This document shows, one piece after another, positions 33,966 through 50,912 of a stretch of 64,000 bases of DNA. The stretch is from positions 5,845 to 69,844 of the forward strand of contig CAMAXJ010000001.1 in the NCBI GenBank assembly GCA_945862155.1, in the 5' to 3' direction. Both the position numbers and the translations under genes were made by a program. The DNA comes from Rhodoluna limnophila. Its GTDB lineage: Bacteria > Actinomycetota > Actinomycetes > Actinomycetales > Microbacteriaceae. The notes beneath the pieces are model-generated. The model had not been told where the DNA came from and searched no databases. It saw only the letters and a list, made by a program, of their open reading frames with translations. Positions within the stretch are counted from its first letter, which is position 1. Each line of letters begins with the position of its first letter.

Positions 33966-35156
33966 ATGCAAAACACTTACTTTGTTGACGGAGTTCGCAC
34001 TCCATTCGGGAAAGCCGGAGAAAAGGGTGTCTACTGGAACACTCGAGCAGATGACCTAATGGTCAAAGCGATTATCGGTCTACTAGATCGTCACCCAAAT
34101 CTTCCCAAGGAAGCAATCGACGATGTTGCTATTGCAGCCACCGATCAAACTGGCGACCAGGGTTTAACCATTGGAAGGACCTCGGCTTTACTTTCAGGTC
34201 TTCCACTATCCGTTCCCGGCTTTGCAATTGACCGGATGTGTGCCGGGGCCATGACTGCTGTGACATTGACCGGATCTGCGATTGGCGTTGGTTCCTACGA
34301 TGTAGTTCTCGCAGGAGGTGTGGAGCACATGGGGCACCACCCAATGAGTGAATGGGCAGATCCAAACCCGAGGCTCCTAGCCGAGAAACTGTTTGCCCAA
34401 GAAGCTTTGAACATGGGTTGCACAGCTGAAAATATCCACGACCGCTTTCCAGTTTTAACCAAGGAGCGCGCAGATGCCTTTGCGGTTAGAAGCCAGCAGC
34501 GTGCAGCAGCTGCTTACGACAAGGGCTACATCCAGCAAGATCTAGTTTCAGTTGCCGTAAGCACACCAGAAGGTGTTCGAGTAGTTGATCGCGATGAACT
34601 ACTACGGCCTAATTCAACCGTTGAGGGAATGAAAGATCTAAAGACACCCTTTAGGGCTAACGGCAAAGTCACCGCAGGAAACGCCTCTCCTTTGACAGAT
34701 GGAGCAACCATTTCTCTACTTGCCGGCGATCAAGCGCTAAAGCAATACGATCTACGCCCACGCATGCGCATGGTTGGATTTGCTTTTGCTGGTGTTGAGC
34801 CCGAGCTGATGGGCACCGGCCCAATCCCCTCAACGGAAAAGGCACTAAAAAAAGCAGGACTTACTATTTCTGATATTGGCCTCTTCGAAATCAACGAGGC
34901 TTTCGCAGTCCAAGTTCTTTCATTCCTTGAACACTTTAAGATTGCCGATGATGACCCCCGTGTTAACTCCTGGGGTGGAGCAATAGCATTTGGTCACCCG
35001 CTGGCTTCTTCAGGCGTTCGCTTGATGAATCAACTATCCCGCCAGTTCGAAATGCGCCGTGATGTTCAGTACGGAATTACCACGATGTGTATTGGTTTGG
35101 GCATGGGCGGAACTGTTATCTGGGAGAACGAGTTTTTCGACGGGAAAAAAAGCTGA
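33966..35156 (+). CDS. acetyl-CoA C-acyltransferase (thiolase, FadA-like)
   Basis: 396 aa with nucleophile context IDRMCAGAMTA, NEAFAVQ, GHPLASSGVR and CIGLGMGG. Confidence 0.9.
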   Translation: MQNTYFVDGVRTPFGKAGEKGVYWNTRADDLMVKAIIGLLDRHPNLPKEAIDDVAIAATDQTGDQGLTIGRTSALLSGLPLSVPGFAIDRMCAGAMTAVTLTGSAIGVGSYDVVLAGGVEHMGHHPMSEWADPNPRLLAEKLFAQEALNMGCTAENIHDRFPVLTKERADAFAVRSQQRAAAAYDKGYIQQDLVSVAVSTPEGVRVVDRDELLRPNSTVEGMKDLKTPFRANGKVTAGNASPLTDGATISLLAGDQALKQYDLRPRMRMVGFAFAGVEPELMGTGPIPSTEKALKKAGLTISDIGLFEINEAFAVQVLSFLEHFKIADDDPRVNSWGGAIAFGHPLASSGVRLMNQLSRQFEMRRDVQYGITTMCIGLGMGGTVIWENEFFDGKKS

Positions 35157-35185
35157 GTCAATAAGGATTGATGGCCAAGGGTGTA

Positions 35186-36388
35186 TCAGGGCAACAAAAA
35201 CTTGGTTCGGTAGCTTTGGATAGTTGGCCGCATGCCAATCCCGCAAACCCCAACCAGTTTGTCATTTCTGAAATATTCAAAAACGCACTCGCCAGATATT
35301 TCACCCGCAACTAACTCGCTTCTGTCGGCGAGGTATGTCATTCCGAAGGCAAGGATGTGCATGTCGTATTGGTCAGACCAAAACGAGGGCAGCGGAGCAA
35401 ACGGCTCCGCTAGCATTTCTGCTATCGATTCGCCGTTTAGGTATTTGCCCAGAATTAGCCCTGCGCGTTTTCCAGTTTCGGTCGGCAGGTTCCAGTGCTC
35501 GACGCGACGAGGCACTTGGTCAAACAGCGGGTTGACATAGCGCGCCACATCGCCAACTGCAAAGACATTTTCAACTAACGTGCCATTTGAAGAAACCGCC
35601 CGCAGTCCGCCATCAACCAAAACGCCATTAGAGATATCTATTCCACTTCCCTCGAGCCATTCGGTATTTGGCAAAGAGCCAATTGCAACTACAACTAGAT
35701 CTGCATCGTAGATAACCCCTGAATCAAGAATCACTCTTTCCACATGCCCATCACCGATCAAGCCAAACACCGAGGCGCCTTTAACAAACTCGACACCCAT
35801 AAGTTCATGGCGGCGCTTAACTTCTCGACCTAGAGTTTTACCGAGTGCTTCTTGCATTGGCTCATGAGTTCTTGCAACAACTTTCACTTGGCAGCCAGCC
35901 TTGACGGCAGTGGCGGCAACTTCACACCCAATGAACCCGGCGCCAAGAATCAAAACCTTCACTCCGGGAAGAAGCTGCTTACGCAGGGCAACGGCATCGT
36001 CAAAAGTTCTTAGAACGTGAATGCCTGAGATGCCATTGGCATCAACTGGCAGTGGCTTTGGTCGAAGGCCGGTTGCAATAACTAGCGCTCTGTATGGATG
36101 ACTGGTCCCGGATAGATCAGTAACTTTTTGTTCTTGGATATCTAATGACGTAGCGGCTTTTCCCAGCACCCATTCCACATCAGCTACCGATTCTTTGATG
36201 GGGAAGTAGATTTCATCAATGTCACCGGTTCCGCTTAGTAATTCCTTAGATAGCGGAGGTCTGTTGTATGGAAGGTATGGCTCATTGCCGATTACTTTTA
36301 TCGGGCCGGCGTAGCCGGCACGGCGAAGCCCTTCAGCAGAGCGCAGCCCAGCTAGTGAGCCACCAACAATTACTACCGGAGCGGACAA
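35186..36388 (-). CDS. NAD(P)H-ferredoxin reductase (putidaredoxin-reductase-like FAD flavoprotein)
   Basis: 400 aa with VVIVGGSLAGLRSAEGL, NRPPLSKE, ILGAGFIGCEVA and FAVGDVA. Confidence 0.85.
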   Translation of the reverse strand: MSAPVVIVGGSLAGLRSAEGLRRAGYAGPIKVIGNEPYLPYNRPPLSKELLSGTGDIDEIYFPIKESVADVEWVLGKAATSLDIQEQKVTDLSGTSHPYRALVIATGLRPKPLPVDANGISGIHVLRTFDDAVALRKQLLPGVKVLILGAGFIGCEVAATAVKAGCQVKVVARTHEPMQEALGKTLGREVKRRHELMGVEFVKGASVFGLIGDGHVERVILDSGVIYDADLVVVAIGSLPNTEWLEGSGIDISNGVLVDGGLRAVSSNGTLVENVFAVGDVARYVNPLFDQVPRRVEHWNLPTETGKRAGLILGKYLNGESIAEMLAEPFAPLPSFWSDQYDMHILAFGMTYLADRSELVAGEISGECVFEYFRNDKLVGVCGIGMRPTIQSYRTKFLLP

Positions 36389-36397
36389 AATCGTTAG

Positions 36398-36589
36398 CTA
36401 CTGAGCGATGCGAATAGCCTGCATCGGGCAGATATCAACCGCTGCCTCGACATTGTCTCGTTCGCTGTCGTCAACTTCGGCCACGTATTCCAACTTGTCC
36501 TCGGCGTTCAATTTGAAAACGGTTGGAGCTTCGAATACGCACTGTCCGTAGTGCTGACACTTGTTCATGTCAACTTCGACTTTGATCAT
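36398..36589 (-). CDS. small [3Fe-4S]/[4Fe-4S] ferredoxin (P450 redox-partner type)
   Basis: 63 aa with CQHYGQC ... CP cluster ligands. It immediately follows the FAH gene with zero spacer. Confidence 0.8.
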   Translation of the reverse strand: MIKVEVDMNKCQHYGQCVFEAPTVFKLNAEDKLEYVAEVDDSERDNVEAAVDICPMQAIRIAQ

Positions 36590-37465
36590 TTACTTCTCCT
36601 CGATTCGTGACGGATAAAGGTCTTTGGATGGAGTTCGTATGCCACGGAATTCCCAGTCGCCACCCATAGCGGTTGAAATCACTTCTTCGCTTTCAGTTGG
36701 CTGGGCTCCCACATCAGATCGAATTGGAGATGAACCGTGAACAATTTTGTTGCTCAAGCGGCCAAGCCCTTCAACCTCAACCTCAACAACATCGCCTGGC
36801 TGCACCGGTCTTGAGTTTGCTGGTGTGCCGGAAAAAATCATGTCCCCTGGCACTAGCGTGATGGTGCGAGCTAGATCTGCAACAAGGTAGTTCATATCCC
36901 ATTCCATGTTTTTGGTGTTGTCGTCTTGCTTTAGCTCACCGTTGACATAGGTGCGAATGTACTTGTTGCGAAAGTCCCAGTCGGTGACCATTCCTGGTCC
37001 AACCGGAGCCAAGGTGTCCGCACCTTTTACTCGAAGCATGGAACCGGCGTCGGTGTCTCTGAAATCGTGCAGACCATAGTCGTTACCAACTGAGTATCCA
37101 GCAATGTATTGACCTGCTTCATCAGGCGAAATGTTCTTGCAAGTTTTGCCGATGATGATCACGATTTCACCCTCGTAGTTCAACCACTTGCAACGATCCG
37201 GGCGGACAACATGTCCATGATGTGAATTCAAAGCAGTTATTGGCTTGTGAAAGTAAGTTGGGGCAGATGGCAATTTGGTCATGAATTCATCGGTACGGGA
37301 TTGGTAGTTCAAATGGACAGCCAAGATTTTGGTTGGCTCACTCGGGGCAAGATGAATGGCATCCTCGATGGCAACTTTTCTGCCATCGGCAGCCACCAAG
37401 TCGTTGCCGACTCTAAGCACCTGAACCGGCGCTCCTTCTAATTGAATCCGACGATACTCAGTCAC
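36590..37465 (-). CDS. fumarylacetoacetate hydrolase (FAH) family enzyme (HpaG/decarboxylase-isomerase-like)
   Basis: FAH-fold motifs (KILAVHLNY, NYEGEIVIIIGK, GYSVGNDYGLHD, MIFSGTP). The start is trimmed to GTG 37465, which overlaps the upstream stop by 8 nt. The longest ORF reaches 37606. Confidence 0.75.
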   Translation of the reverse strand: MTEYRRIQLEGAPVQVLRVGNDLVAADGRKVAIEDAIHLAPSEPTKILAVHLNYQSRTDEFMTKLPSAPTYFHKPITALNSHHGHVVRPDRCKWLNYEGEIVIIIGKTCKNISPDEAGQYIAGYSVGNDYGLHDFRDTDAGSMLRVKGADTLAPVGPGMVTDWDFRNKYIRTYVNGELKQDDNTKNMEWDMNYLVADLARTITLVPGDMIFSGTPANSRPVQPGDVVEVEVEGLGRLSNKIVHGSSPIRSDVGAQPTESEEVISTAMGGDWEFRGIRTPSKDLYPSRIEEK

Positions 37466-38366
37466 GCGAAAGAACCAGGTCCTTTGGTCTTGGGAAGCCA
37501 GCTTCAGGCTCAGGGAAGTAAACGTGAACTTGTCCCGTACCAATTGAGTTTTCATAGTCGGAGTACATAACACCCTTGGCGGTGTTGTCTCTCTCACCGG
37601 TCGCACCAGCCATGGTCAACCAATGGCTGAAGTTAGCCTCAGGCTTGAACTGCTTGAACTCATCCATGGTGTCCAGGATTCGTGCGTGATCTCCCTGCTT
37701 CATCCACTCGATGCGCTCTAGATCTGCAAGGCGCGCACCTTCTGAATAGATGTGGCTTGGGTCAGAGGACTCGTGCTTGCGAAGGTCGCGAAGCTTGTAG
37801 AAAGTGTGAGACAGGGCACCGGAAGCTAGCAGCAATACTTTACGATCGGTGTCGCGAATTGCTTCACCCAAGGCGCGACCGGCGCGCAAGAAATCCTCCG
37901 CTGTTGCAGTTTGGCAAACAGAAATAGAAACCCACTTCTTGTCCAGGCCGCGACCTAGGTAGTGCCAAAGGTTTACAGTGGCATAGAAGATTGGAAGATG
38001 CGGATCGCTAATTGGAGTTATCCAGGTTCCGTTTTTCTCGTCGTATTTCGCAGCTGCCATGGCAAGTTCCGGGTCACCCTTGAATGCGTAGGGAACCTGA
38101 GACATGCCTCGAGGAAGCTCTTCGGAAGTGAACAATCCAGAGCGCTCTGCCTGAGCGGTAATTACAAACTCAACTGTGGTGGCCCAATGGCTGTCAAGAA
38201 CAACTACTGTGTCGTAGTCCAGAGTCTCCATGACCTCTTTGCGGAATCTCTTTAGTCCTGGAACTAGCGAAATCTCCTTGCCCTCGTTTAGGTCATAACG
38301 AACCTTTTCGGGCAACATGATTGTTGGCACGTGAGCCAAGATTGCGGCTCCAACTACTTTTCCCAT
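37458..38366 (-). CDS. class III (LigB-type) extradiol ring-cleavage dioxygenase (HpaD/AmnB-like)
   Basis: MGKVVGAAILAHVP N-terminus, VVLDSHW, LLASGALSH, GTGQVHVYFP. A GGAAGGA RBS lies 6 nt upstream of the ATG at 38366. Confidence 0.8.
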   Translation of the reverse strand: MGKVVGAAILAHVPTIMLPEKVRYDLNEGKEISLVPGLKRFRKEVMETLDYDTVVVLDSHWATTVEFVITAQAERSGLFTSEELPRGMSQVPYAFKGDPELAMAAAKYDEKNGTWITPISDPHLPIFYATVNLWHYLGRGLDKKWVSISVCQTATAEDFLRAGRALGEAIRDTDRKVLLLASGALSHTFYKLRDLRKHESSDPSHIYSEGARLADLERIEWMKQGDHARILDTMDEFKQFKPEANFSHWLTMAGATGERDNTAKGVMYSDYENSIGTGQVHVYFPEPEAGFPRPKDLVLSRD

Positions 38367-38368
38367 TT

Positions 38369-39835
38369 CTATTCCTTCCATCCATTCGGTGAAATAACTG
38401 TGTTCTTTACATCTGCGTAGAAATCAAAAGACCAATTGCCACCCTCGCGGCCGATTCCAGATTTCTTGGAACCACCGAAGGGAGCCTTGAGGTCGCGAAC
38501 AAAGAAGCAGTTAATCCATATTGTTCCAGCAACTACCTCTGAAGCAATCCGCTTGGCATGTTCACGATTGCCTGAAACAATGACGGCTGCCAAACCAAAC
38601 TCGGTGCCGTTGGCCATTTCAATTAGCTGCTCATCTGTTGAAAAAGTCTGCATAGTCAAAACTGGGCCAAAGATCTCGGAGGTGACAATTTCCGCACCCA
38701 CCGGAGGGTTGACAATCAGTGTTGGTCTAAAGAACAGACCCCCCAGCTCACTGTTGGGCTCACCGCCCATAACTACTTTGATGCCGTCGTTCTTTGCGCG
38801 ATCTACAAATCCTTTGATGCGCTCGAAGTGCACTGGATGTATCTGAGGACCGATGTCGGTGTCTGGGTCTCGCGGGTCGCCCTGCTGAAGCTTCGCAGCC
38901 CTTTCTTGGAACTTTTTGGAAAACTCATCGGCAACCGATTCGTGCACCAGCAAACGAGTTCCAGAAAGACAAACCTGACCTGCGTTGTCGTACTGCTCAA
39001 CTGCCAGTTCGGCGGCAAGATCGAGGTCGGCATCTTCCAAAACAATCGTTGGAGATTTTCCACCCAGCTCAAAAGAAACCGGGGTTAGGTTCTCGGCCGC
39101 GGCGTGAGCTATCTTCTTCGCAGTCGGGACAGAGCCGGTGAATGAAATTCTTGCGATATCCGGATGGGAAACTAGAGCGTTGCCAACCTCAGCACCGAAA
39201 CCTTGCACAACGTTGAATACTCCCGCTGGAATTCCTGCTTTCACCGTTAGGTCAGCAAAGAAGGAAGCCGAGAGCGGAGTCCACTCAGCAGGTTTCAAAA
39301 TCACAGTGTCTCCGGCTGCAAGAGCTGGACCAATCTTCCAAGTTGCAAGCATCAGCGGTGCATTCCAAGGTGTCACCAAAACTGCAACCCCGGAAGGATC
39401 CCAGGAGATGTTGTTGGTGTGACCGCGAGTTTCCCAGCTTTCGTGGTGAAGATCGTTGATAGCCCAATCGGCAAAGAATCGAAGGTTTAGTGCAACTCTG
39501 GGCATGACGCCTCGAATATGAGACCTAAGCAAAGAACCATTGTCCAGAGTTTCGAGATTTGCTAGCTGCTCCAGATTTTCTTCGACCAGTGCCGCTAGTC
39601 GATGCAGTAATTCACCGCGGCCCTTGGGTCCCAGCTTGGACCATTCGGGGAAAGCTTTGCGAGCTGCCGCAACAGCTAGGTCAGCTTCGCGCTGACCACC
39701 TTTTGAAATTTTCGCGAGCAGGGCGCCATCAATGGGAGAAAAATTGTCGAAGGTTTCAGATGAGGAAACGCGTTGGCCACCAATGAAGTGACGGGTGTCT
39801 ACGGTAAGGCCCGATAGTGCAACGGTGTCAGTCAC
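38369..39835 (-). CDS. NAD(P)+ aldehyde dehydrogenase (hydroxymuconic-semialdehyde-dehydrogenase-like by context)
   Basis: ALDH motifs FTGSVPTAKKI, ELGGKSP and NAGQVCLSGTR (catalytic Cys). The start is trimmed to GTG 39835 after a GAAGGGG RBS. Confidence 0.85.
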   Translation of the reverse strand: MTDTVALSGLTVDTRHFIGGQRVSSSETFDNFSPIDGALLAKISKGGQREADLAVAAARKAFPEWSKLGPKGRGELLHRLAALVEENLEQLANLETLDNGSLLRSHIRGVMPRVALNLRFFADWAINDLHHESWETRGHTNNISWDPSGVAVLVTPWNAPLMLATWKIGPALAAGDTVILKPAEWTPLSASFFADLTVKAGIPAGVFNVVQGFGAEVGNALVSHPDIARISFTGSVPTAKKIAHAAAENLTPVSFELGGKSPTIVLEDADLDLAAELAVEQYDNAGQVCLSGTRLLVHESVADEFSKKFQERAAKLQQGDPRDPDTDIGPQIHPVHFERIKGFVDRAKNDGIKVVMGGEPNSELGGLFFRPTLIVNPPVGAEIVTSEIFGPVLTMQTFSTDEQLIEMANGTEFGLAAVIVSGNREHAKRIASEVVAGTIWINCFFVRDLKAPFGGSKKSGIGREGGNWSFDFYADVKNTVISPNGWKE

Positions 39836-39929
39836 AATTGCCCCTTCGCAATTCGTTCGGATACTAACAATACAATAAAGCACCCGCGGCCCCAAGGCCA
39901 ACAGGAAGTTCTAACGATCGAAAAAGAAC

Positions 39930-40430
39930 CTAGTCCTGGGCCTCGGTAAAGGCGGTTATCTTCCTCAGGGCAACAGTCAATTCCCGCTTTTCGGTCTTGC
40001 TGAACCCGCTCAAGACCTGTTGTTCGTGGGTGTTGAAATCAGGGAACAGCTTCTTCATAAGGGCCCTGCCTTTGGAGGTTAGAGTCACAATCACCAGACG
40101 CTTGTCCCCGGTGCCAGGATCCCGTTTCAGGTATCCCTTGCCCTCGAGGGTTTGTAGCACGCCGGTGAGGGTCGCCTTAGAAAAGCCGCCTTCTTCCGCG
40201 ATAACCCTGGTCTCGATAGGCTCCCAGATCCAAGACACCCACAGCACCACAAATCCAGTCCAGGAAAGCTCGTGGGGTCCAAGGACAGTGCGTTCAAGAT
40301 AGTTTCTGGTGGCATTGGCGGCGCGGAAGATATTGCTGATCGCAGCCATGGAGTCAAAATCCAGGGTCATGCCAGAGAGCTTGTTTTCAACCTGTCGCTC
40401 GGTCTCACTGAGGGTATGAGCTCCAGACAT
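39930..40430 (-). CDS. MarR-family transcriptional regulator
   Basis: 166 aa with a winged HTH (FSKATLTGVLQTLEGKGYLKRDPGTGDKRLVIVTLTSKG). It heads the ring-cleavage operon and is divergent from the P450. Confidence 0.85.
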   Translation of the reverse strand: MSGAHTLSETERQVENKLSGMTLDFDSMAAISNIFRAANATRNYLERTVLGPHELSWTGFVVLWVSWIWEPIETRVIAEEGGFSKATLTGVLQTLEGKGYLKRDPGTGDKRLVIVTLTSKGRALMKKLFPDFNTHEQQVLSGFSKTEKRELTVALRKITAFTEAQD

Positions 40431-40586
40431 CAGCTTCTCCGATTCGTTGGTATGGCACCTAACAATGACAATAGCCGAGCCTCAGGGACTATTCCCCATG
40501 ACTTTCTGGATATTTGTCCTAAAGGCCCAGTGAAATGTGTAGATTATTAGCGTCCAAACAATCTCCAAAAAAGAGAGAGCTCAACG

Positions 40587-41822
40587 ATGAGTTATAACTT
40601 TGCAGACTTAGACCTATTCGAAAAGGGCGCCCCTTGGCAAGCCTTCGCCGAAGTAAGAGCCACCGGCAAGCCACACTTTTCTGAAGAAGCAGCACCCAAC
40701 CATGGCTTTTGGTCAATCATGGGATACAGCGACATCGTTAAAGTCCTTCGAGACTCAGAGACTTTTACCTCAGAACGCTTCACAAATCTTGAAGAAGTCG
40801 ATGCCGAACAAGAACAGGCTCGCAGATCACTTCTTGAAACAGACGGACTGCGTCACCGAGCACTCAGGCGAATGCTGCAAGGAGAGTTCACTCCGCAGGC
40901 AGTAAGCAAATACGAAACGTTTTTGAGAGGGCTTACAGCCACCACACTAGACAGCGCGTTTGCCAAGGGTGAATTCGATTTCGTTGAAGACGTCAGCGCA
41001 GATTTTCCAATTCGAGTTCTAGCTCGAATACTGGATGTTCCCGACGAAGACACCGGTCAACTAATCGACTGGGGTAACCGAATGATTGGTAACACCGATC
41101 CCGAGCATGCAGATGTTTTGATGGAAGATCCAGAATCAGAAAAGTATCGCCTGGTTCCATTTAGATCCCCTGCAGCACTTGAAGTATTTGAGTATGGTCA
41201 GGCACTAGCTGCCCAGCGACGCGGCAAGGGGAAAAAAGACCTGGTCTCAGTTTTGGCAGATGGCGTCCCATCGGATGGAATTCCACTATCGGAGCGAGAC
41301 TTCAACACAAACTTCCTTTTGTTAGTCGTTGCTGGAAACGAAACTACCCGTCACACCATCTCTCACACCATGAACAATTTGATAAAGAACCCAGACCAGT
41401 TAGCTCTTCTACAAGAAGACCCTTCACTTATTCCATGGGCGGTGGAGGAGTTTTTGAGATTTGCATCACCGGTTTATCACTTCAGAAGGACAACCACTAA
41501 AGATGTCGAAATCAATGGCGTGAAAATCAAGGAAGGCCAAAAAGTATTGCCTTGGTTTGCTTCGGGAAACAGAGACCCAGAAATCTTCAAAGATCCAAAC
41601 AAAATGGATGTGACCAGAAATCCAAACGAACACATGACATTTGGCCGCGGAGGGCCACACATGTGTCTGGGAAATGCCCTAGCTCGAATTGAGATGCGAG
41701 TGATGTTTGAGGATTTGATTTCTCGAATTGACCGCGTCGAGCGAACCGGAAGCATCGATTACCTAAGGTCTAACTTCGTGCACGGCATAAAGAGAATGCC
41801 GGTTAAGGTTCACCTCAGATAA
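40587..41822 (+). CDS. cytochrome P450 monooxygenase
   Basis: 411 aa with I-helix AGNETT, EEFLRF (ExxR), and heme loop FGRGGPHMCLGNALAR. Confidence 0.9.
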   Translation: MSYNFADLDLFEKGAPWQAFAEVRATGKPHFSEEAAPNHGFWSIMGYSDIVKVLRDSETFTSERFTNLEEVDAEQEQARRSLLETDGLRHRALRRMLQGEFTPQAVSKYETFLRGLTATTLDSAFAKGEFDFVEDVSADFPIRVLARILDVPDEDTGQLIDWGNRMIGNTDPEHADVLMEDPESEKYRLVPFRSPAALEVFEYGQALAAQRRGKGKKDLVSVLADGVPSDGIPLSERDFNTNFLLLVVAGNETTRHTISHTMNNLIKNPDQLALLQEDPSLIPWAVEEFLRFASPVYHFRRTTTKDVEINGVKIKEGQKVLPWFASGNRDPEIFKDPNKMDVTRNPNEHMTFGRGGPHMCLGNALARIEMRVMFEDLISRIDRVERTGSIDYLRSNFVHGIKRMPVKVHLR

Positions 41823-42528
41823 GGTTGGCAACTTTCGATAGATAGTTGTCCACCAATTGAAACGTTCTTTGCTTGGCAGCTTCTTCTTCGGCGGCCGTCT
41901 GACTCATCATGACAATCGGATCTTGACCGTCTTGCTGGACCTTCTTGTCCCCGCCCCAGTCGAGCCAACCTTTTAGTCCAGCCGAATCAAGTTCAGGATG
42001 GAATTGAACACCGAGGGACTTATTGATAACAAACGCTTGTGAGGAAACTGGATTGCGTGCGATTTCTTTGACGCCACCAGGCAATACCCATTGGTCGTAG
42101 TGAAATTGGAACCACGGACCATTAGAAACTAGGTCTGGTTCTTCCGACCAAATGTAAGTCCAACCAATCTCGGCCTTAGGTGATCTAGATACCGAACCAC
42201 CAAGCGCTCTGGCAATTAGCTGACCCCCGAAACAAATGCCAAGCACGGGCTTGCCCGATTCGACGGCATTTTTAATCCATGCCAATTCCGGCTGAAGCCA
42301 GTTCCCGATGCAGTCATCGTCCCAGGCGCCCCAAGGTGCCCCTAGGGGAATGATTAGGTCGTAGTTATCTATGTTTGGAAATTCGAATGCCACATTGGGA
42401 GATTCAAAGTTTTCTTCGGGTACCACTAGCTGGGTCTCAATTTCAAAGCCATGATGGGCCAGTCTTTGTCCAACTGGGCCTACCGGGCTGACGTGATCAT
42501 GCTGAATAAATAGCGCTTTCACAATCAC
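41815..42528 (-). CDS. class I glutamine amidotransferase-like hydrolase (candidate gamma-glutamyl-amide hydrolase)
   Basis: 237 aa with nucleophile elbow GICFGGQ and His-Glu VQFHPE. It overlaps the convergent P450 gene by 8 nt. Confidence 0.8.
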   Translation of the reverse strand: MIVKALFIQHDHVSPVGPVGQRLAHHGFEIETQLVVPEENFESPNVAFEFPNIDNYDLIIPLGAPWGAWDDDCIGNWLQPELAWIKNAVESGKPVLGICFGGQLIARALGGSVSRSPKAEIGWTYIWSEEPDLVSNGPWFQFHYDQWVLPGGVKEIARNPVSSQAFVINKSLGVQFHPELDSAGLKGWLDWGGDKKVQQDGQDPIVMMSQTAAEEEAAKQRTFQLVDNYLSKVANLI

Positions 42529-42645
42529 ACTCCCCAGGAATTAGGCCTAGAAAAAAGGTTCCGAGTCGATGCCGGATGGCTTTAGTATATCTCATTAGAT
42601 ACCAAACGATTCAACACCGCATTCATTGCCACAAAGGAGTAGCAA

Positions 42646-43998
42646 ATGGGTAGCTCACTAGAGTCTCTTCAGAAAGAACTCAAGTCCAAGAACATTGACG
42701 TTCTTAGAGTCATTTACTTGGATATTCTCGGCGTCATCAGAGCAAAAGACATGCTGGTATCCCAGCTAGGTCGCATCAATCACGGCGGCCCAGGCTTTTG
42801 TCAGGGCGTGTGGGTGACCACAACAGGCGGTGACGTTCTAGATGGCAACAATCTCGTCACTGACGGACTTGAAGATTTCGTATCTCAAGTGGTGCCCGAG
42901 TCATGGCGCCCACTTCCCTGGGAACCTGGAGTGGCATACGCCGTTGCAGGAGCAAACAACCCAGACGGAAGCAAGAACCTACTCTCACCGCGAAACGTTT
43001 TGGAATCTGTTGTTGCAAAGTACCAGGCACTGGGACTTCACCCAATTGTTGGACCAGAGCTCGAGTTTTACATCGCAGAACAGGACGAGAACGGAAAGTA
43101 CCGCAGGGCTATCGAACACAAGGGACAGGTTTACACTTCTGGATCTGTAGTTGACCCTAAGGGTACTTTCCTAAATCTCCTTCGTATGGTTGACCAAATG
43201 GACATCGGCGTATTTGCCGGTAACCATGAATTCAGCCCATCCCAGTACGAGATTAACTTTTGGCACGGTCCAGCGGTAGATGCCGCTGATCGAACACTTC
43301 TATTCAAAACTGCAGTGAAAGAAGTTGTTGCGAGGGCCGGTCAGCACGCAACCTTCTGCGGTAAGCCATGGAGCGATGAGGGTGGAAGCGGATTCCACCT
43401 TCACTTCTCGGTAGAAGATGGTAAGGGCAAGAACCTAATGCACGATGGCGGCACTGGACTTAGCGAAGTTGGTCTCCAGATAATCGCTGGTATCACCAAG
43501 CACGCTGCTGCACTGACAGCCATCTGTAACCCAACAATCAACGCCTTCAAGAGACTCGGCCCTGACACGCTCGCGCCTTACCGCGCGAACTGGGGATTCG
43601 ATAACCGTTCAGCAATGGTTCGCATCCCGCCAGAGCACGGAGCCGGAACCAGGCTCGAAGTTCGAGTTGCTGATGGAGCTGCAAACCCATATCTGATGAT
43701 TGCTGCAATTTTGGCTGCTGGTTTGGATGGGATCCAAAGCAAGCTAACAGCACCAGAGCCAGTTGTTGGACTGTCTTATGAGAATGAATCGGCCCCGGTA
43801 CTTCCGATGAGCTTGGAAGCTGCGCTGGATGCACTCGAAGCTGACACCGTACTTCGTGATTTGCTAGCTGGGCCTATTGTTGATGTCTTCCAAATCTTGA
43901 AGCGCGATGAAGTAAAGCGCTACAAAGAAGCTGTTTCTGATCCGAACACTCGAGACACTACCGACTGGGAAGTCAAGGAGTACATGTCAGATTTCTAA
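42646..43998 (+). CDS. glutamine synthetase family protein (gamma-glutamyl-amine synthetase-like: GlnA3/PuuA/IpuC/TdnQ type)
   Basis: 450 aa with the GS catalytic-domain pattern (GPELEFY, HEFSPSQYEIN, GSGFHLHFS, NAFKRL, NRSAMVRIP). Confidence 0.85.
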   Translation: MGSSLESLQKELKSKNIDVLRVIYLDILGVIRAKDMLVSQLGRINHGGPGFCQGVWVTTTGGDVLDGNNLVTDGLEDFVSQVVPESWRPLPWEPGVAYAVAGANNPDGSKNLLSPRNVLESVVAKYQALGLHPIVGPELEFYIAEQDENGKYRRAIEHKGQVYTSGSVVDPKGTFLNLLRMVDQMDIGVFAGNHEFSPSQYEINFWHGPAVDAADRTLLFKTAVKEVVARAGQHATFCGKPWSDEGGSGFHLHFSVEDGKGKNLMHDGGTGLSEVGLQIIAGITKHAAALTAICNPTINAFKRLGPDTLAPYRANWGFDNRSAMVRIPPEHGAGTRLEVRVADGAANPYLMIAAILAAGLDGIQSKLTAPEPVVGLSYENESAPVLPMSLEAALDALEADTVLRDLLAGPIVDVFQILKRDEVKRYKEAVSDPNTRDTTDWEVKEYMSDF

Positions 43999-44010
43999 AG
44001 TCAAAAGACT

Positions 44011-44829
44011 TTAGACAGTTGGATCGGAAAAGTCCGCAACCAAAGTTCCACCTGCAAAGGTGACTCCTAGTTCGCGGTAGTAACCTCCGAGTACTTTTTC
44101 TACTGGAAGAATTGAACCCAACTCGTCCCACTGCGAATCTCCAAGAACAATTTCGGCGTCACCACTCCAGGTCACACCAATTTCAGCATCGCTGGAACCA
44201 AGTGAAACAAGTTGGTCTAACGAGTTACCTTTTCCTGGAGTAATCGAAGGCATCCAACGACTGTGCAACATTTTGTGTCCGTTCACAAAACCATTGCTGT
44301 CAGAGGGCTGACGCAATGTAACAATCGCACTAGCAAGTCTGTGATCGTAGGCCGAAACGCTCGCACCTAGCTTCGCGCCGGGCTCAAGCTTTGGTGTTGC
44401 CTGACCGTTATTGAAAACTCTTGTGACGGCAATGCTGCCAAGTTTTTTGGGGTAGCCCTGGAACCAACCTCGTGCAATTGCGAAATCTTTTGTCACCCAG
44501 ATTGCAACACAGCGTGAATACGTGACGTCTTTGTATTTGCAGCGAATGACAACGAAAGTTTCGAGATACTGCGATCGAACTGGATCTAGCAGTTCTGCCT
44601 TTGATGTCGAACATGATTGCCAGTCGGCCCAGATGATTGCGACACCACCTGGCTGATCGTCCGCTAACTCCACTCCCTCCGGAAACAGCGCAGCAACGTT
44701 TTTGGGATCGGTTAGATACTCAACCGTTAGAAGGGTGCCCGAGTAAAGCCAAGGCATTTCTGGGATGATTGCGCTTTTACCCGTTGGGGTTTTAGGGGCT
44801 AGAAATCCACGTAATTTGCTCATGGACAA
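44011..44829 (-). CDS. acetoacetate decarboxylase (ADC) family protein
   Basis: 272 aa. ADC-fold pattern with a WFQGYPKKLG Lys-Lys motif resembling the Schiff-base lysine pair of ADC/MppR/Sbi00515-type enzymes. Confidence 0.7.
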   Translation of the reverse strand: MSMSKLRGFLAPKTPTGKSAIIPEMPWLYSGTLLTVEYLTDPKNVAALFPEGVELADDQPGGVAIIWADWQSCSTSKAELLDPVRSQYLETFVVIRCKYKDVTYSRCVAIWVTKDFAIARGWFQGYPKKLGSIAVTRVFNNGQATPKLEPGAKLGASVSAYDHRLASAIVTLRQPSDSNGFVNGHKMLHSRWMPSITPGKGNSLDQLVSLGSSDAEIGVTWSGDAEIVLGDSQWDELGSILPVEKVLGGYYRELGVTFAGGTLVADFSDPTV

Positions 44830-44988
44830 TAGGGTACAGAGTCATTTGGGTACAAACGAGGCATTTTTGAGTATTTTTCTTCATGAATTTCGCCTCGGCG
44901 ACTTGACCAAATGGGCGATTAGGGCAAGATTAGTCATATCGTTTTGACACAAACGATTCTCCATTCAATGAAGAAGGGAGCCATATAC

Positions 44989-46473
44989 ATGGCCAAAGAA
45001 TCAAGCACCTCGCTGCGCAAAGGCCGTCTTGGCGTAGCGGGAATCGTATTTTTCGTGGTGGCAGCTAGTGCCCCACTGGTAGGAATGACCGGAGCTGTTC
45101 CGGTAGCCATGCTCCTAGGAAATGGAGCAGCCACCCCAGGTGCCTATCTGGCAGTCGGAATAACACTTCTGATTTTCTCAGTCGGTTATGCAGCTATGAG
45201 CCACAAGGTAACTAACGCCGGAGCATTCTTTGCCTACGTCGGAAAAGGCCTTGGCGTAAACGCCGGAGTCGGTTCTGCTTATGCATCGATTGTTGGATAC
45301 GTAACTATCCAGCTGGCAATCTATGGATTCTTCGGATTGACCATGGGTTTGACCATGGCGCAGTTCGGCGTGGATCTGGCTTGGTGGGTTTGGGCGCTAA
45401 TTGCCTGGCTACTGGTCACCGGTCTTTCACTTCTGAGCGTTGACATCGGAGCAAAAATTCTCGGTGTTCTGCTTGCTGTTGAATTGCTATCGCTACTTGT
45501 GACCGCTGTTGCAATTTTGATCAACGGTGGACCCGAAGGCGCGAACGTAGGAGCTTCGTTTGATCTAGGCCTAGTGTTTGCTGGTGGCTTTGCTGGAACT
45601 GCTGGAATTGCTTTGGCATTTGCCTTCGCATCCTTCATCGGATTCGAAGCAACAGCAATCTATGGCGAAGAGTCCAAAAACCCTAAGCGCGATGTCCCTA
45701 GAGCTACTTACTGGGCAATTGGAATCATCAGCGGTTTGTTTGCTGTAGTTTCCTTCGCAATGGTTACTGGTATGGGCGCGGGTGCAATCATCGACCAGGT
45801 TGTCGAGCGCTCAGGCGGACTAGCCGATCCTTCTGCTGTTTTGTTTAGCTTGGCAGCAGAGTATGTATCACCTGAAATTGTTGTGGTAATGGCACTGCTT
45901 GTTGTCACCAGCTTGTTCGCCGGACTATTGGCGTTCCAGAATGCTGCTGCAAGGTACTTCTTTGCTATGGGCCGCGGAGGCGTTATGCCTTCAGCTTTGG
46001 GTAGAACCAACGCTGCTGGCGCGCCACAAAATGGAGCAATCCTAACCTCAGTAATTGCAGCTGCAGTGATCATTGCATTTGCGGCAGCTGGGTTGGATCC
46101 ATTCCTGAACCTGTTTAGTTGGATGAGCGGTGTTGCAGTTATCGCTGTGGTGGCCGTTGAGATTCTGGTTTCCGTTGCAGTAATCGCCTTCTTCCAGAAA
46201 AACGGTGGCGGTAACCTGTGGAACTCCAAGATCGCACCTGGAGCATCCATCGTGCTTCTTATCGCAGGGCTTTACATGCTTATGGCCCGCTTCAACTTGC
46301 TAGCTGGAACTGCTGCCGATGGAGTCGACCCATCGCTACCAGAGTCTGGTTGGGCATTGAGCGGACTCGGCTGGTTCCTAGTGCTGTCCCCATTCATCGC
46401 ATTCATTATTGGCTTCGTGGTGTCCTCCACTAACAAGTCCAAGAACGCTGCACTGGTTAAGGACTTTGCGTAG
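44989..46473 (+). CDS. APC-superfamily amino acid/amine permease
   Basis: About 12 TM segments. The start is trimmed to the ATG at 44989, 8 nt after a GAAGGGAG RBS. The longest ORF starts at 44944 (TTG). Confidence 0.85.
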   Translation: MAKESSTSLRKGRLGVAGIVFFVVAASAPLVGMTGAVPVAMLLGNGAATPGAYLAVGITLLIFSVGYAAMSHKVTNAGAFFAYVGKGLGVNAGVGSAYASIVGYVTIQLAIYGFFGLTMGLTMAQFGVDLAWWVWALIAWLLVTGLSLLSVDIGAKILGVLLAVELLSLLVTAVAILINGGPEGANVGASFDLGLVFAGGFAGTAGIALAFAFASFIGFEATAIYGEESKNPKRDVPRATYWAIGIISGLFAVVSFAMVTGMGAGAIIDQVVERSGGLADPSAVLFSLAAEYVSPEIVVVMALLVVTSLFAGLLAFQNAAARYFFAMGRGGVMPSALGRTNAAGAPQNGAILTSVIAAAVIIAFAAAGLDPFLNLFSWMSGVAVIAVVAVEILVSVAVIAFFQKNGGGNLWNSKIAPGASIVLLIAGLYMLMARFNLLAGTAADGVDPSLPESGWALSGLGWFLVLSPFIAFIIGFVVSSTNKSKNAALVKDFA

Positions 46474-46488
46474 GAATAATTTGAAAAC

Positions 46489-46528
46489 AATTAGCTGGGG
46501 GCCAACTAAGTTTGGCCCCCAGCTAATT
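46489..46528 (+). terminator. 17-bp perfect inverted repeat (terminator or protein-binding palindrome)
   Basis: AATTAGCTGGGGGCCAA - CTAAGT - TTGGCCCCCAGCTAATT, 15 nt after the permease stop. No U-tract follows. Confidence 0.55.
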
Positions 46529-46536
46529 CCAGGAAG

Positions 46537-46794
46537 GTGATTGTGGATAAAGAATTTGACCTTGATGTCACATTTGAACAGCAAGCCGACGAGGCATTAA
46601 TTGCTTCGCTTAGTCCTGAAAAACTCTCTAAGCACATTCAGAATCTTCCTGCCGACTTAGTAGATGCAGCAACCGGAATTCTTATCGAACACAGAACCTA
46701 CTCCGATGTCTCGCAGCAACTGGGCATTAGGCAGCAAGAACTCGTCAGAGCCGTTCATCGCGCAAAACTACTTATTAGCGAGTCTCAAAACTAA
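46537..46794 (+). CDS. stand-alone sigma-70 region-4-like HTH protein (or fragment of an ECF sigma factor)
   Basis: 85 aa. LPADLVDAATGILIEHRTYSDVSQQLGIRQQELVRAVHRAKLLI matches the sigma region 4.2 pattern. GTG start after an AGGAAGG RBS, and a stop codon lies 10 codons upstream in frame. Confidence 0.5.
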   Translation: MIVDKEFDLDVTFEQQADEALIASLSPEKLSKHIQNLPADLVDAATGILIEHRTYSDVSQQLGIRQQELVRAVHRAKLLISESQN

Positions 46795-46892
46795 ACAAAC
46801 TGCGCAACACATCCGTCTAACTGGCATGCAAATCGCCATTCGAAACATTTGAAGTCTTTAACCACCACCCTTATCGTCTGAGAGAGTCCAAA

Positions 46893-48251
46893 GTGAGTTA
46901 CACACTTATCAACCCGGCAACCGAAGAGTCGATGGAGACTATCGAGCACCTCGACGCGAGGCAAACCGATGAAGCGATCGAAAAGGCAGTCAAGGCCCAA
47001 GAGAAGTGGGCAGCACTAGCTCCTGGCGATCGAGCCATGTTGCTTAGGCGTTTTGCGTCAGCAGTTGATGCCGACAACGAAAACTTAGCTCAACTGGAAG
47101 TTAGAAATTCTGGACACCCAATTGATCAGGCGCGCTATGAAGCCAACAATGTTCGCGATGTTTTGAATTACTACGCCGGAGCACCAGAGCGACTAGTTGG
47201 CAAACAAATTCCGGTAGCCGGTGGAATTGCAGTTACATTCCATGAACCAATCGGCGTGGTTGGAATGATCACCCCTTGGAACTACCCAATGCCAATTGCT
47301 GGCTGGGGAATGGCCCCCGCTCTTGCGGCGGGGAATGCAGTGGTTCTAAAGCCTGCTGAGTGGACCCCACTTACCTCGATGCGCTTAGCCGAGCTTGGAT
47401 TAGAAGCAGGATTACCCGAGAACTTGTTTCAGGTCCTGAATGGGAAAGGAACCGTTGTTGGAGAGCGCCTAGTCACCAACGAAAAAGTCGGGAAGATTGT
47501 TTTCACTGGTTCCACTTCGGTTGGAAAGCACATCATGCGCGGTGCCGCTGATCAAATCAAACGCGTAACGCTAGAACTTGGCGGCAAGAGCGCCAACATC
47601 ATTTTTGAAGACGCCGACGTTGTGAAGGCTGCAACCACTGCGCCTTATGCGGTTTTTGAAAACGCTGGGCAGGACTGCTGTGCGAGATCAAGAATTTTGG
47701 TGCAGAGATCCGTCTACGACAAATTCATGGAAGCTTTAGAACCGGTAGTCAAAGCAGTAAAGGTGGGAGACCCAAGCCTTAGCGGAACAGAAGTTGGCCC
47801 CTTGGTGAGTAAAGCGCACCGCGAAAACGTCAGTAGTTTCCTCGATGGAGCCGACGTTGCATTTCAAGGCAGCGCCCCAACCGGAAAAGGCTTTTGGTTT
47901 GCCCCAACTGTTGTTCTAGCAAAGAGCCCAAGCGATAGATGCATGGCGGAAGAGATTTTTGGCCCGGTAGTAACCGTTTATCCGTTTGAGACAGAAGCCG
48001 AAGCAATAGAGCTGGCAAACGGGACAGAGTACGGACTATCTGGTTCGATTTGGACACGCGATTTAGGACGTGGCATCCGCGTCTCAAGAGCTGTGCAAAG
48101 TGGAAACCTTGCCGTGAATTCTCATTCGTCTCTTAGGTACACAACACCATTTGGTGGCATGAAGCAATCTGGTATGGGTCGTGAACTCGGTCCAGACGCA
48201 CCACTTCACTTCACAGAAGAAAAGGTAGTTTTCTTCAATTCAAATAGCTAG
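46893..48251 (+). CDS. NAD(P)+ aldehyde dehydrogenase (PuuC/IpuH-like by context)
   Basis: 452 aa with FTGSTSVGKHI, ELGGKSA and NAGQDCCARSR. GTG start. Confidence 0.85.
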   Translation: MSYTLINPATEESMETIEHLDARQTDEAIEKAVKAQEKWAALAPGDRAMLLRRFASAVDADNENLAQLEVRNSGHPIDQARYEANNVRDVLNYYAGAPERLVGKQIPVAGGIAVTFHEPIGVVGMITPWNYPMPIAGWGMAPALAAGNAVVLKPAEWTPLTSMRLAELGLEAGLPENLFQVLNGKGTVVGERLVTNEKVGKIVFTGSTSVGKHIMRGAADQIKRVTLELGGKSANIIFEDADVVKAATTAPYAVFENAGQDCCARSRILVQRSVYDKFMEALEPVVKAVKVGDPSLSGTEVGPLVSKAHRENVSSFLDGADVAFQGSAPTGKGFWFAPTVVLAKSPSDRCMAEEIFGPVVTVYPFETEAEAIELANGTEYGLSGSIWTRDLGRGIRVSRAVQSGNLAVNSHSSLRYTTPFGGMKQSGMGRELGPDAPLHFTEEKVVFFNSNS

Positions 48252-48263
48252 AGCAGATAACCG

Positions 48264-49148
48264 CTATCGATTCTGGTAGCCGCTGGCAATTTCCAAAACC
48301 GCAAGAGCGCCAAGTCGAACAGTTCTGCCGTCGGCACTGTCAGCCATCGCGTCAATCTCTGTGACGTCAACAGATCGAACTTGTTTTGCTTTTCCAACCA
48401 GGAATGCAAACTGGCGCAGCTCATCAGCCGAAATTCCTCCCGGTGCAGCAGCCGGACAGGCTGGAACAAAAGCTCGATCACAAACATCCATGTCGAAATC
48501 AACATGAAGTTGCTTGTTGCCAAGTTTTGAAAGAGCCTCATCCATCACAGAGTCGGCACTTCTATTTCTTAGTGCTGAGCGTGGAATTACGTGAACACCG
48601 TACTCTTTTGCCCTTGCTGCATACTGTGGTGAATTTGAAAAGTCATTTATTCCAATTTGAACAACGCTCGTGCCGGGAAGACCCGCTTCAATCAGTCGTC
48701 TAACTGGAGAGCCATTTGAAACGCCATCACGAAGATCGTGATGGGCATCAAATGTAATCAAGCCACTTGATGCGAGCTCATCGCCAAACACTCCGCGCAT
48801 GACGGCATAGGTAATTGAGTTGTCGCCACCGAGGGCGATTGCAAGACCAGAATTTTTAGTTACTCTTGCGGCAAGCCCCATCGTTGTTTCTTCGCCGTCG
48901 GGAGAATCCGGAGTTTCGGAATCTCCAAAATCTGCGATTGAGAGATCTCTGACATCTTTGCCCTGGCTCCAGCTGTAAGTGGAGTAGCGAGCTAGCGCGA
49001 CTCTGATCTCTGTTGGGGTGGCATCGGCGCCGGTTGCCGAAATGGATGTCCCGGACGCCAAAACCCCAAACAGCCCTAAGTCATACTGACCTGATCCTGC
49101 TGGGCTTAGCCAGCCGGCGGCTCTAGGCCACAGAGCGTCTTCGCTCAC
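48264..49148 (-). CDS. hutG: arginase-family ureohydrolase, formimidoylglutamase by hut context
   Basis: 294 aa with metal motifs FDAHHDLRD and DFDMDVCD, and GGDNS where arginases/agmatinases have GGDHS. Divergent from hutU. Confidence 0.65.
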   Translation of the reverse strand: MSEDALWPRAAGWLSPAGSGQYDLGLFGVLASGTSISATGADATPTEIRVALARYSTYSWSQGKDVRDLSIADFGDSETPDSPDGEETTMGLAARVTKNSGLAIALGGDNSITYAVMRGVFGDELASSGLITFDAHHDLRDGVSNGSPVRRLIEAGLPGTSVVQIGINDFSNSPQYAARAKEYGVHVIPRSALRNRSADSVMDEALSKLGNKQLHVDFDMDVCDRAFVPACPAAAPGGISADELRQFAFLVGKAKQVRSVDVTEIDAMADSADGRTVRLGALAVLEIASGYQNR

Positions 49149-50908: not shown

Positions 50909-50912
50909 ACAC

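Follow-up and report, generated by a model that had tools for sequence, protein, structure and literature searches.

A putatively MarR-controlled gene cluster that joins a cytochrome P450 system to extradiol ring cleavage in freshwater Actinobacteria: a candidate route for the degradation of glutamyl-masked aromatic amines

A 64,000-nucleotide stretch of Rhodoluna limnophila DNA (contig CAMAXJ010000001.1), referred to below as the window, carries an extradiol ring-cleavage operon that faces a cytochrome P450 gene. It belongs to the genome of a Rhodoluna-like freshwater actinobacterium (G000) of 1.17 Mb, assembled in 63 contigs and 93.5% complete. A first-pass annotation, read from the letters alone, had listed seven genes and proposed that the P450 makes the substrate of the ring-cleavage enzymes. 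Profiling of the window proteins against Pfam and NCBIfam, with structural relatives taken from matches in the Protein Data Bank (PDB), confirmed the seven genes at their positions. Some starts were revised on the basis of ortholog alignments and the sequence itself. The listed genes make up one half of a single catabolic regulon, about 11 genes in all and probably under MarR control, at positions 35186-46473 of the window. The other half, next door, consists of a glutamine-synthetase (GS)-like ligase, a hydrolase, an ADC-fold enzyme, and a permease.

The ring-cleavage operon lies on the minus strand. It begins with a MarR-family regulator (39930-40430; PF01047), which stands beside the cluster in most distant loci too. 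An aldehyde dehydrogenase (ALDH) of 488 aa (38369-39835; Aldedh, 517 bits) is followed by a LigB-type (class III) extradiol dioxygenase (37458-38366; PF02900, 76.5 bits against a cut-off of 26.3) and a single-domain FAH-family enzyme of 291 aa (36590-37465; PF01557, 178 bits). A three-Cys ferredoxin of 63 aa with the motif CxxYxxC...CP (36398-36589; Fer4_13/Fer4_15) and a ferredoxin reductase of the FAD/NAD, putidaredoxin-reductase type (35186-36388; Pyr_redox_2, 198 bits, with Reductase_C) complete the operon. The best NCBIfam matches of the reductase are ferredoxin-NAD+ reductases, every one below its cut-off. The ALDH starts at GTG 39835, with a GAAGGGG ribosome site ahead, and the dioxygenase at ATG 38366, 2 nt past the ALDH stop. 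The FAH-family gene starts at GTG 37465, which gives 291 aa instead of 338, and its GTGACTGA overlaps the dioxygenase stop by 8 nt. The ALDH/LigB, LigB/FAH, FAH/ferredoxin, and ferredoxin/reductase spacers are 2, -8, 0, and 9 nt. The earlier description of the junctions as overlapping or without spacer is apt from the ALDH through the reductase, but not for the MarR and ALDH genes, which are 94 nt apart (39836-39929) with an operator-like site between them.

The operon proteins most resemble enzymes of homoprotocatechuate degradation. Identity of the dioxygenase to E. coli HpaD is 28.8%, compared with 59% or more to its own orthologues in different phyla, which sets it apart as a distinct subfamily nearest HpaD. 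It scores 133.8 bits against HpaD_Fe (TIGR02298), below the equivalog cut-off of 315.95. Its nearest solved structure is 8iq8 (HpaD, 3,4-dihydroxyphenylacetate 2,3-dioxygenase; 1e-21), and the beta subunits of 2-aminophenol 1,6-dioxygenase (AmnB) come second (1e-10). As in the LigB superfamily, His12, His60, His187, and Glu258 are invariant, here in five orthologues, and would represent the two-His-one-Glu iron ligands and the catalytic His. The ALDH is HpaE-like (505 bits against HpaE, cut-off 638, vs 424 bits against HMSD) and is predicted to be the ring-fission semialdehyde dehydrogenase. The FAH-family enzyme is HpaG/HpcE-like, with 203 bits against the C-terminal HpaG profile (cut-off 276) vs 20 bits against DmpE of the XylI/XylJ/DmpE type. 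Its best PDB match is 1gtt (HpcE, 206 bits), and it is a probable decarboxylase/isomerase of the ring-fission diacid. Thus, the likeness to hpaD, hpaE, and hpaG noted in the first-pass annotation stands as the best family match, with every score below the equivalog cut-off, and the amnB/amnC alternative offered there falls behind with weaker scores.

The P450 gene (40587-41822; PF00067) is transcribed on the plus strand, divergently from the MarR gene, across a 156-bp spacer at 40431-40586. The protein has normal monooxygenase motifs, with Cys360 in FGRGGPHMCLG and the I-helix motif AGNETT at residues 249-254. It falls in the CYP125/CYP124/CYP142/CYP268 clan and scores 353 bits against the reconstructed CYP125MRCA and about 218 bits against extant CYP125 and CYP268. 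Around residues 178-197, about 12 extra residues (…LMEDPESEKYRLVPFRSP…) are gapped in alignments with CYP125MRCA and CYP125. Three-Cys Fer4_13/15 ferredoxins are a type of actinobacterial P450 partner. A class I three-component system is complete at the locus, with the heme-ligand Cys and the acid-alcohol pair of the P450, the three-Cys ferredoxin, and the reductase with its Pyr_redox_2 and Reductase_C domains. Electrons would pass from reductase to ferredoxin to P450; in most clusters the P450 comes with both partners, and the one cluster without a P450 has neither. CYP125-type systems are class I as well, use small three-Cys ferredoxins, and give the best sequence matches of the P450. However, the system described here has no steroid-catabolic genes among its neighbours and carries the extra residues.

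A class I glutamine-amidotransferase (GATase)-like hydrolase gene (41815-42528, minus strand; GATase and partial Peptidase_C26 domains) is convergent with the P450 gene and overlaps it by 8 nt. At the domain level it is the hydrolase that gamma-glutamylation pathways contain, and the protein is a probable gamma-glutamyl-amide hydrolase. The GS-like ligase gene follows (42646-43998, plus strand; Gln-synt_C, 315 bits). Its product is a probable gamma-glutamyl-amine synthetase, although it scores below every NCBIfam cut-off (GlnA, 264 vs 429 bits; GGputSyn, the gamma-glutamylputrescine synthetase family, 244 vs 650 bits). The genome has four GS homologues, and two of them, above cut-off and located elsewhere, are true GS; the ligase is thus distinct from the housekeeping enzyme. 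It scores 154 bits against the arylamine ligase NpaA1 (8WWU) vs 205 bits against ordinary GS, and such scores do not make it an orthologue of PuuA, AtdA1, or NpaA1. A comparison with a plasmid relative did not discriminate between identities, as the ligase is about 33% alike to GlnA, GlnT, and the GS-family gene of a Sphingobium sp. YBL2 plasmid.

The last two members of the unit are the ADC-fold enzyme and the permease. The ADC-fold gene (44011-44823, minus strand; PF06314, 181 bits) encodes a protein that scores 153-156 bits against MppR and Sbi00515. Its K128 aligns with the Schiff-base lysines K122 of Sbi00515 and K156 of MppR, and the equivalents of the neighbouring Glu, Tyr, and Arg are kept. 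Fold and lysine place it in the MppR/Sbi00515 branch, with a score against the MppR equivalog (175 bits) below the cut-off of 380. Enzymes of this branch catalyze aldol, dehydration, and cyclisation chemistry on 2-oxo acids and do not decarboxylate. The protein encoded in the window shares their fold and residues but stands in a catabolic context, where it is proposed to work in the reverse direction, by hydration and retro-aldol cleavage. The APC-family permease gene (44968-46473, plus strand; AA_permease) probably starts at ATG 44968, not TTG 44944, a choice backed by a conserved TCAATG. Its best NCBIfam matches, which are weak, are ethanolamine and polyamine permeases, and the protein is a probable amine importer.

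All of these genes travel together. Among 80 fetched loci with a LigB alignment, 32 are at least 19 kb long and are called here the long Microbacteriaceae loci. Every one of the 32 holds the ADC-fold, GS-like, GATase-like, P450, MarR, ALDH, LigB, FAH, ferredoxin, and reductase genes in identical order, and 30 also hold the APC permease. Relatives of the P450 and the dioxygenase are found in metagenome-assembled genomes of Rhodoluna and other freshwater Microbacteriaceae. When the P450, LigB, and ADC-fold genes were scored across 40 relatives, each genome of at least 85% completeness had either all three or none; discordant patterns are few and confined to genomes at most 71% complete. Beyond Microbacteriaceae, a draw of 300 genomes from the order yielded a LigB orthologue in 17 further genomes of five other families. 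In these distant loci the same genes are reshuffled yet remain neighbours, and the GS-like and P450 genes are adjacent and co-directional in most. Minimal clusters (L104, L106, L109) consist of LigB-ferredoxin-reductase facing GS-like-P450-GATase, with the GATase-like gene co-transcribed behind the other two. A plasmid collection adds a Streptomyces canus plasmid and an Embleya record with the gene set. The cluster is widespread and sharply delimited. Two second copies of LigB (G171:C51:8807-9703 and G268:C76:10707-11603; L113 and L114) stand alone with one in-frame TGA each and are probably decaying duplicates.

A common operator ties the two halves together. The three divergent spacers were aligned across 40 Microbacteriaceae genomes, and each contains a single conserved block, an imperfect 18-bp palindrome TCGTTTG-N4-CAAACGA. 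A search pattern, TYRTTWK-N3-MCMAACRA, was written from these phylogenetic footprints. It matches exactly at 40544-40561 in the MarR/P450 spacer (26 nt before the P450 start), at 42592-42609 in the GATase/GS-like spacer, and twice in the ADC/permease spacer, at 44842-44859 on the ADC side and at 44939-44956 on the permease side, where the site is a perfect ATCGTTT-N6-AAACGAT. With one mismatch it also matches at 39853-39870 (minus strand), 17 nt upstream of the ALDH start, and at 38284-38301 within the LigB reading frame, about 65 nt past its start; the latter could be a chance match or an internal site. All six sites (four exact, two with one mismatch) lie in the cluster and none elsewhere in the 64 kb. 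The exact matches in the window are circular evidence, because the pattern was written from them. The distant loci and the rest of the genome serve as independent tests. In 22 distant high-GC loci there are 43 matches, compared with 0.38 ± 0.63 in shuffles. Where mapped, the distant matches sit between cluster genes, such as GS-like/ADC, LigB/GS-like, and ALDH/permease. The rest of the 1.17-Mb genome holds five scattered one-mismatch matches, which is no excess over chance. A first pattern, ATCGTTT-N6-AAACGAT with three mismatches allowed, was not enriched in the window (6 vs 3.05), and an inverted-repeat search of the three spacers found nothing because the operator arms are imperfect.

One MarR protein and one predicted 18-bp operator thus appear to define the regulon. 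Co-induction of the P450 with the ring-cleavage operon was a point on which the first-pass proposal had staked itself; at the sequence level, the P450 gene carries the same operator as that operon. The proposal that both form one functional unit is supported by linkage, all-or-none distribution, the shared operator, and a genome search that found no other aromatic hydroxylase. Gene identities, linkage, distribution, and the common operator are direct observations.

Clusters of other organisms vary on this theme. On plasmid pABRDHK22 of the alphaproteobacterium Novosphingobium sp. EMRT-2 (L120), the dioxygenase (59%), FAH-family (72%), and ADC-fold (51%) proteins are orthologous, and the adjacent P450 and GS-like proteins are non-orthologous (38% and 34% identity). 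That another P450/GS pair has been recruited to these ring-cleavage genes argues strongly for cooperation between the two modules. This locus has a 2Fe-2S ferredoxin and two ALDHs, and the actinobacterial operator was not found in it. Soil clusters L103, L110, L112, L115, and L116 add a VanA-type Rieske oxygenase and a Fer2/NAD protein resembling phthalate-dioxygenase reductase (PDR), and L016 and L117 have the PDR-like reductase without the oxygenase. The three-Cys ferredoxin and its reductase were not found in any of these seven loci.

Other variants bear on the fate of the amine. In total, about 105 loci were fetched, including distant ones. A PuuD-like C26 hydrolase gene is present in 60 of them, usually between the MarR and ALDH genes (for example L013:8057-8758, L111:7252-8052, and L017:13504-14271), and its loss in the lineage of the window accounts for the 94-nt MarR-ALDH spacer. 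In Streptomyces lunaelactis (plasmid pSLUN1, L121, NZ_CP026305.1) and in Embleya, a PuuC-like ALDH and a C26 protein whose best match is PuuD form an operon that shares an operator-rich spacer with ALDH-LigB-FAH. In this Streptomycetaceae variant the ALDH scores 554 bits against PuuC (cut-off 850), the best of all families, and the C26 protein 92 bits against PuuD (cut-off 266). The Streptomycetaceae operator matches lie between the ALDH-LigB-FAH genes and the operon of the second ALDH and C26, and the S. lunaelactis locus has seven sites between cluster genes. Additionally, that locus has a gene for a pyridoxal-phosphate decarboxylase behind the FAH-family gene, the two best family matches of which are tyrosine decarboxylases. 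No P450, ferredoxin, or reductase was found within 14 kb of it.

The genome narrows the choice of enzymes. The first-pass annotation had remarked on the absence of the two-component flavin hydroxylase HpaBC and of Rieske oxygenases, and profile searches extend this to the whole assembled genome. HpaB_N, Ring_hydroxyl_A, CHMI, and 4-OT tautomerase have no match in the 93.5%-complete sequence. Rieske domains are limited to small ones at other places, without a two-subunit oxygenase, and FAD_binding_3 matches are N-terminal dinucleotide-fold fragments. An HpaBC-type hydroxylase elsewhere, which could have fed the dioxygenase in place of the P450, was looked for in the same genome and none was found. 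Since the genome has neither HpaB nor a Rieske oxygenase, the P450 is the only candidate hydroxylase. The lower pathway had been described as missing. This is right for 5-carboxymethyl-2-hydroxymuconate (CHM) isomerase and for HpaI (HpcH_HpaI gives one 23-bit fragment), and the whole genome has two FAH-family genes. The hydratase-aldolase, however, is probably the ADC-fold enzyme next door, as MppR/Sbi00515 chemistry run in reverse equals the hydration and retro-aldol steps of HpaH and HpaI. The lower pathway would therefore be present in another form.

Taken together, these features suggest that the regulon degrades a tyramine- or dopamine-like amine that is masked as its gamma-glutamyl amide, hydroxylated by the P450, opened by homoprotocatechuate-type cleavage, and finally deglutamylated. 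The probability of this reading is put at about 60%. For the substrate and for every enzymatic step, family resemblance and gene context are the guide. The APC permease would import the aralkylamine, and the GS-like ligase would use ATP to couple its amino group to the gamma-carboxyl of glutamate. The P450, with the three-Cys ferredoxin and the FAD reductase, would turn the amide into a catechol, and the HpaD-like dioxygenase would open the ring next to the diol. The HpaE-like ALDH would oxidise the semialdehyde, and the single-domain HpaG-like enzyme would decarboxylate and isomerise the diacid. The ADC-fold enzyme, replacing HpaH and HpaI, would hydrate the 2-oxo-enoate and cleave it by an aldol reaction to pyruvate and a gamma-glutamyl amino-aldehyde. 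With a two-carbon side chain, this aldehyde would be gamma-glutamyl-gamma-aminobutyraldehyde, the substrate of PuuC. A second ALDH and a gamma-glutamyl hydrolase (the GATase-like enzyme here, the PuuD-like C26 enzyme in most relatives) would then finish in a Puu-like manner, releasing gamma-aminobutyrate (GABA) and glutamate. The glutamyl group would prevent the amine from cyclising onto the ring-fission products.

In this scheme, the earlier proposal that the P450 makes the ring-cleavage substrate is kept in part. The P450 does form one unit with the ring-cleavage genes, and the genes of the ferredoxin and the reductase are translationally coupled to them. Formation of a catechol follows from gene context and is correspondingly conditional. 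A free aromatic acid such as 4-hydroxyphenylacetate would fit less well as the P450 substrate, which is probably a gamma-glutamyl amide because the GS-like ligase, the hydrolase, the ADC-fold enzyme, and the permease belong to the unit. A more specific version is offered tentatively, at somewhat less than even odds. It holds that a biogenic aralkylamine stays gamma-glutamyl-protected through the P450 step and the full meta cleavage, with the ADC-fold enzyme as hydratase-aldolase, that the route merges with the Puu pathway at gamma-glutamyl-gamma-aminobutyraldehyde, and that it is common in abundant freshwater Actinobacteria such as Rhodoluna and its relatives. A biosynthetic role was set aside, given the permease and repressor, the streamlined genomes, and the lack, in the loci read, of any conserved proximity to biosynthetic core genes.

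Several observations weigh against the degradation of a glutamyl-masked tyramine- or dopamine-like amine. The nearest characterised relatives of the P450, CYP125, CYP124, CYP142, and CYP268, are omega-hydroxylases of the terminal methyls of sterols and branched lipids, and similarity to such aliphatic hydroxylases is therefore no predictor of ring hydroxylation. Because no family match reaches its curated equivalog cut-off, the enzymes may act on other substrates than their Hpa counterparts. No equivalent of CHM isomerase was identified in the genome. The P450-less cluster of S. lunaelactis implies that hydroxylation is sometimes dispensable or takes place elsewhere, and the tyrosine-decarboxylase-like protein of that cluster scores 129 bits against a cut-off of 905 and belongs to one variant only. 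Some genomes do not have the second ALDH and the C26 hydrolase, both required by the proposed ending, within the cluster. Here, an in-cluster C26 gene is lacking, and the second ALDH (ALDH2; 46893-48251, plus strand), which resembles aminobutyraldehyde and betaine-aldehyde dehydrogenases, is ruled out as a universal member, as its ortholog is linked only in the closest relatives.

Genes elsewhere in the genome touch on the same steps. At C49:3902-5876, a second GS-like gene is followed directly by a C26 hydrolase gene, a Puu-like pair that probably serves polyamines. A further C26 gene lies at C48:5816-6457, and this one or that of C49 could supply the hydrolase absent from the cluster. The sole group II decarboxylase of the genome (contig C4, L122:2685-6135) was considered as a partner and rejected, since it lacks the operator and has polyamine-type neighbours. 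Its best match, far below cut-off, is diaminobutyrate decarboxylase, and it is followed by genes resembling N-carbamoylputrescine amidase and agmatine deiminase, also below cut-off, in a compact polyamine-type module.

The cluster can be compared with several known systems, each of which is only a partial match. The E. coli hpa/hpc operon (HpaD/HpcB, HpaE, HpaG/HpcE, HpaR) likewise combines a LigB dioxygenase, an NAD-dependent ALDH, and an FAH-fold enzyme under a MarR-type regulator. It differs in that the FAH-family enzyme described here has one domain instead of two, that HpaBC, HpaF, HpaH, and HpaI are absent from the genome, and that a P450 system, a GS-like ligase, a gamma-glutamyl hydrolase, and an ADC-fold enzyme are added. 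In E. coli Puu (PuuA, PuuB, PuuC, PuuD), the amine is masked as a gamma-glutamyl amide, and the proposed ending here (amino-aldehyde, ALDH, C26 hydrolase) is the same; in relatives, the regulon includes PuuC-like and PuuD-like genes. Unlike Puu, the cluster has no PuuB oxidase, the oxidised part is proposed to be the aromatic ring, and all matches fall below cut-off. The Ipu pathway of Pseudomonas sp. KIE171 and Arthrobacter aurescens TC1 also proceeds through a gamma-glutamyl amide made by a GS-like ligase, its hydroxylation by a P450 with its own ferredoxin and reductase, and deglutamylation. It differs in acting on a small aliphatic amine and in having no subsequent ring cleavage.

Aniline dioxygenase systems (AtdA1-A5, TdnQTA1A2B, and the NpaA1 type) provide the most probable of the alternatives, which is still unlikely. 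In these systems the oxygenase acts on a gamma-glutamyl amide, and a GS-like ligase, a GATase-like hydrolase, an oxygenase, and a reductase precede extradiol cleavage, a composition that the module of the window mirrors. They differ in using a two-subunit Rieske dioxygenase instead of a P450 and ferredoxin; the cleavage enzyme of the window is LigB/HpaD-like, and NpaA1 is only a distant relative of the GS-like ligase (154 bits). Under this alternative, an aniline-type amine would be glutamylated, and the P450 would take the place of the Rieske enzyme AtdA3A4 and hydroxylate ortho to the nitrogen. The GATase-like enzyme would free a 2-aminophenol, the dioxygenase would be an AmnB-type 1,6-dioxygenase, and the ALDH, the FAH-family enzyme (as an analogue of 4-oxalocrotonate decarboxylase), and the ADC-fold enzyme would carry an aminophenol meta-pathway through to pyruvate and acetaldehyde. 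Every core gene would be used, a second ALDH would be unnecessary, the minimal clusters (L104, L106, L109) fit, and AmnB beta subunits are the second-best structural relatives of the dioxygenase. Nevertheless, the dioxygenase, FAH-family enzyme, and ALDH all score higher to Hpa than to Amn/Xyl/Dmp types, neither an AmnA-like second subunit nor a deaminase is present, and the ligase is nearer ordinary GS (205 bits) than NpaA1. An arylamine would also leave unexplained the charged-substrate APC permease and, in relatives, the PuuC- and PuuD-like members and the tyrosine-decarboxylase-like gene. Moreover, it is hard to name a natural arylamine plentiful enough for a 1.2-Mb genome to retain 11 genes for its use.

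Two further alternatives are improbable to about the same degree. According to the first, the amine is glutamyl-masked but is already a catechol or guaiacol, and the P450 O-demethylates a methoxy-phenol amine such as 3-methoxytyramine or oxidises the side chain. In its favour are the P450-less S. lunaelactis cluster, the kinship of the P450 with aliphatic C-H hydroxylases, and the VanA-type Rieske oxygenase with a PDR-type reductase in five or six soil clusters, from a family that includes O-demethylases. Yet the P450 is a core gene in all 32 long loci and all-or-none with the dioxygenase, no aryl O-demethylase P450 family is among its top structural matches, and G000 has no other catechol-forming enzyme. 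According to the second, the cluster holds two co-regulated but non-sequential pathways, a Puu/Ipu-like P450 route for an aliphatic amine and a homoprotocatechuate-like route for an aromatic acid. The GS-like ligase, P450, ferredoxin, reductase, hydrolase, and ALDH do match the published logic of isopropylamine (Ipu) degradation, and the P450 clan prefers aliphatic termini. Against this division, the ferredoxin and reductase genes are coupled to the FAH-family and LigB genes and not to the P450 gene, the minimal clusters keep only the dioxygenase with the GS-like, P450, and GATase-like genes (plus ferredoxin and reductase), and the whole set is gained or lost as one unit. The ring-cleavage half would also be left without a hydroxylase in the genome to make its catechol and without an aromatic-acid transporter.

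Reactivation of extradiol dioxygenases by XylT-type ferredoxins is established for other enzymes of this kind, and XylT-type proteins are plant-type 2Fe-2S ferredoxins. That the ferredoxin and reductase described here reactivate the dioxygenase iron instead of serving the P450 is very improbable: although their genes are always in the ring-cleavage operon and never beside the P450, the ferredoxin is a three-Cys Fer4_13/15 protein and not of the 2Fe-2S plant type, the dioxygenase occurs without them and with another reductase in many clusters (for example L016, L103, L110, and L115-L117), and the P450-less cluster lacks both.

Some features at the edge of the cluster stand apart from these arguments. 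A helix-turn-helix protein of 85 aa (46537-46794, plus strand), with a sub-threshold KorA-like match only, is encoded with the cluster in 20 of the 32 long loci; its position varies, and in most other genomes it lies after the reductase gene. Between the permease and this gene, a perfect 17-nt inverted repeat with a 6-nt loop occupies 46489-46528. Histidine-utilisation genes (hutG-like, then hutU onward) at 48264-53587 adjoin the cluster in this lineage only. Generic scans for promoters and terminators across 35000-48400 returned fewer matches than shuffles and were set aside, and Pfam scans of gap open reading frames in high-GC loci mostly matched spurious frames.

Literature searches returned no account of this gene combination or of the catabolism of gamma-glutamyl-tyramine or gamma-glutamyl-dopamine in bacteria; gamma-glutamyltyramine appears in their results only as an intermediate of methanofuran/methylofuran biosynthesis or in metabolomics lists. 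Since cultured carriers exist, among them Microcella alkalica DSM 19663, Yonghaparkia sp. Root332, Salinibacterium amurskyense DSM 16400, and Streptomyces canus, every step is directly testable. If glutamyl-masked degradation of a tyramine- or dopamine-like amine is correct, the cluster would represent a new route of aromatic-amine degradation in which protecting-group logic is carried through ring cleavage. It would give an MppR/Sbi00515-type ADC-fold enzyme its first physiological catabolic role and a CYP125-clan P450 a function outside lipid and sterol metabolism. It would also point to a substrate class worth 11 genes to the streamlined freshwater Actinobacteria (Rhodoluna, Aurantimicrobium, Microcella, and their kin), with a bearing on how the carbon and nitrogen of biogenic amines are cycled in lakes.

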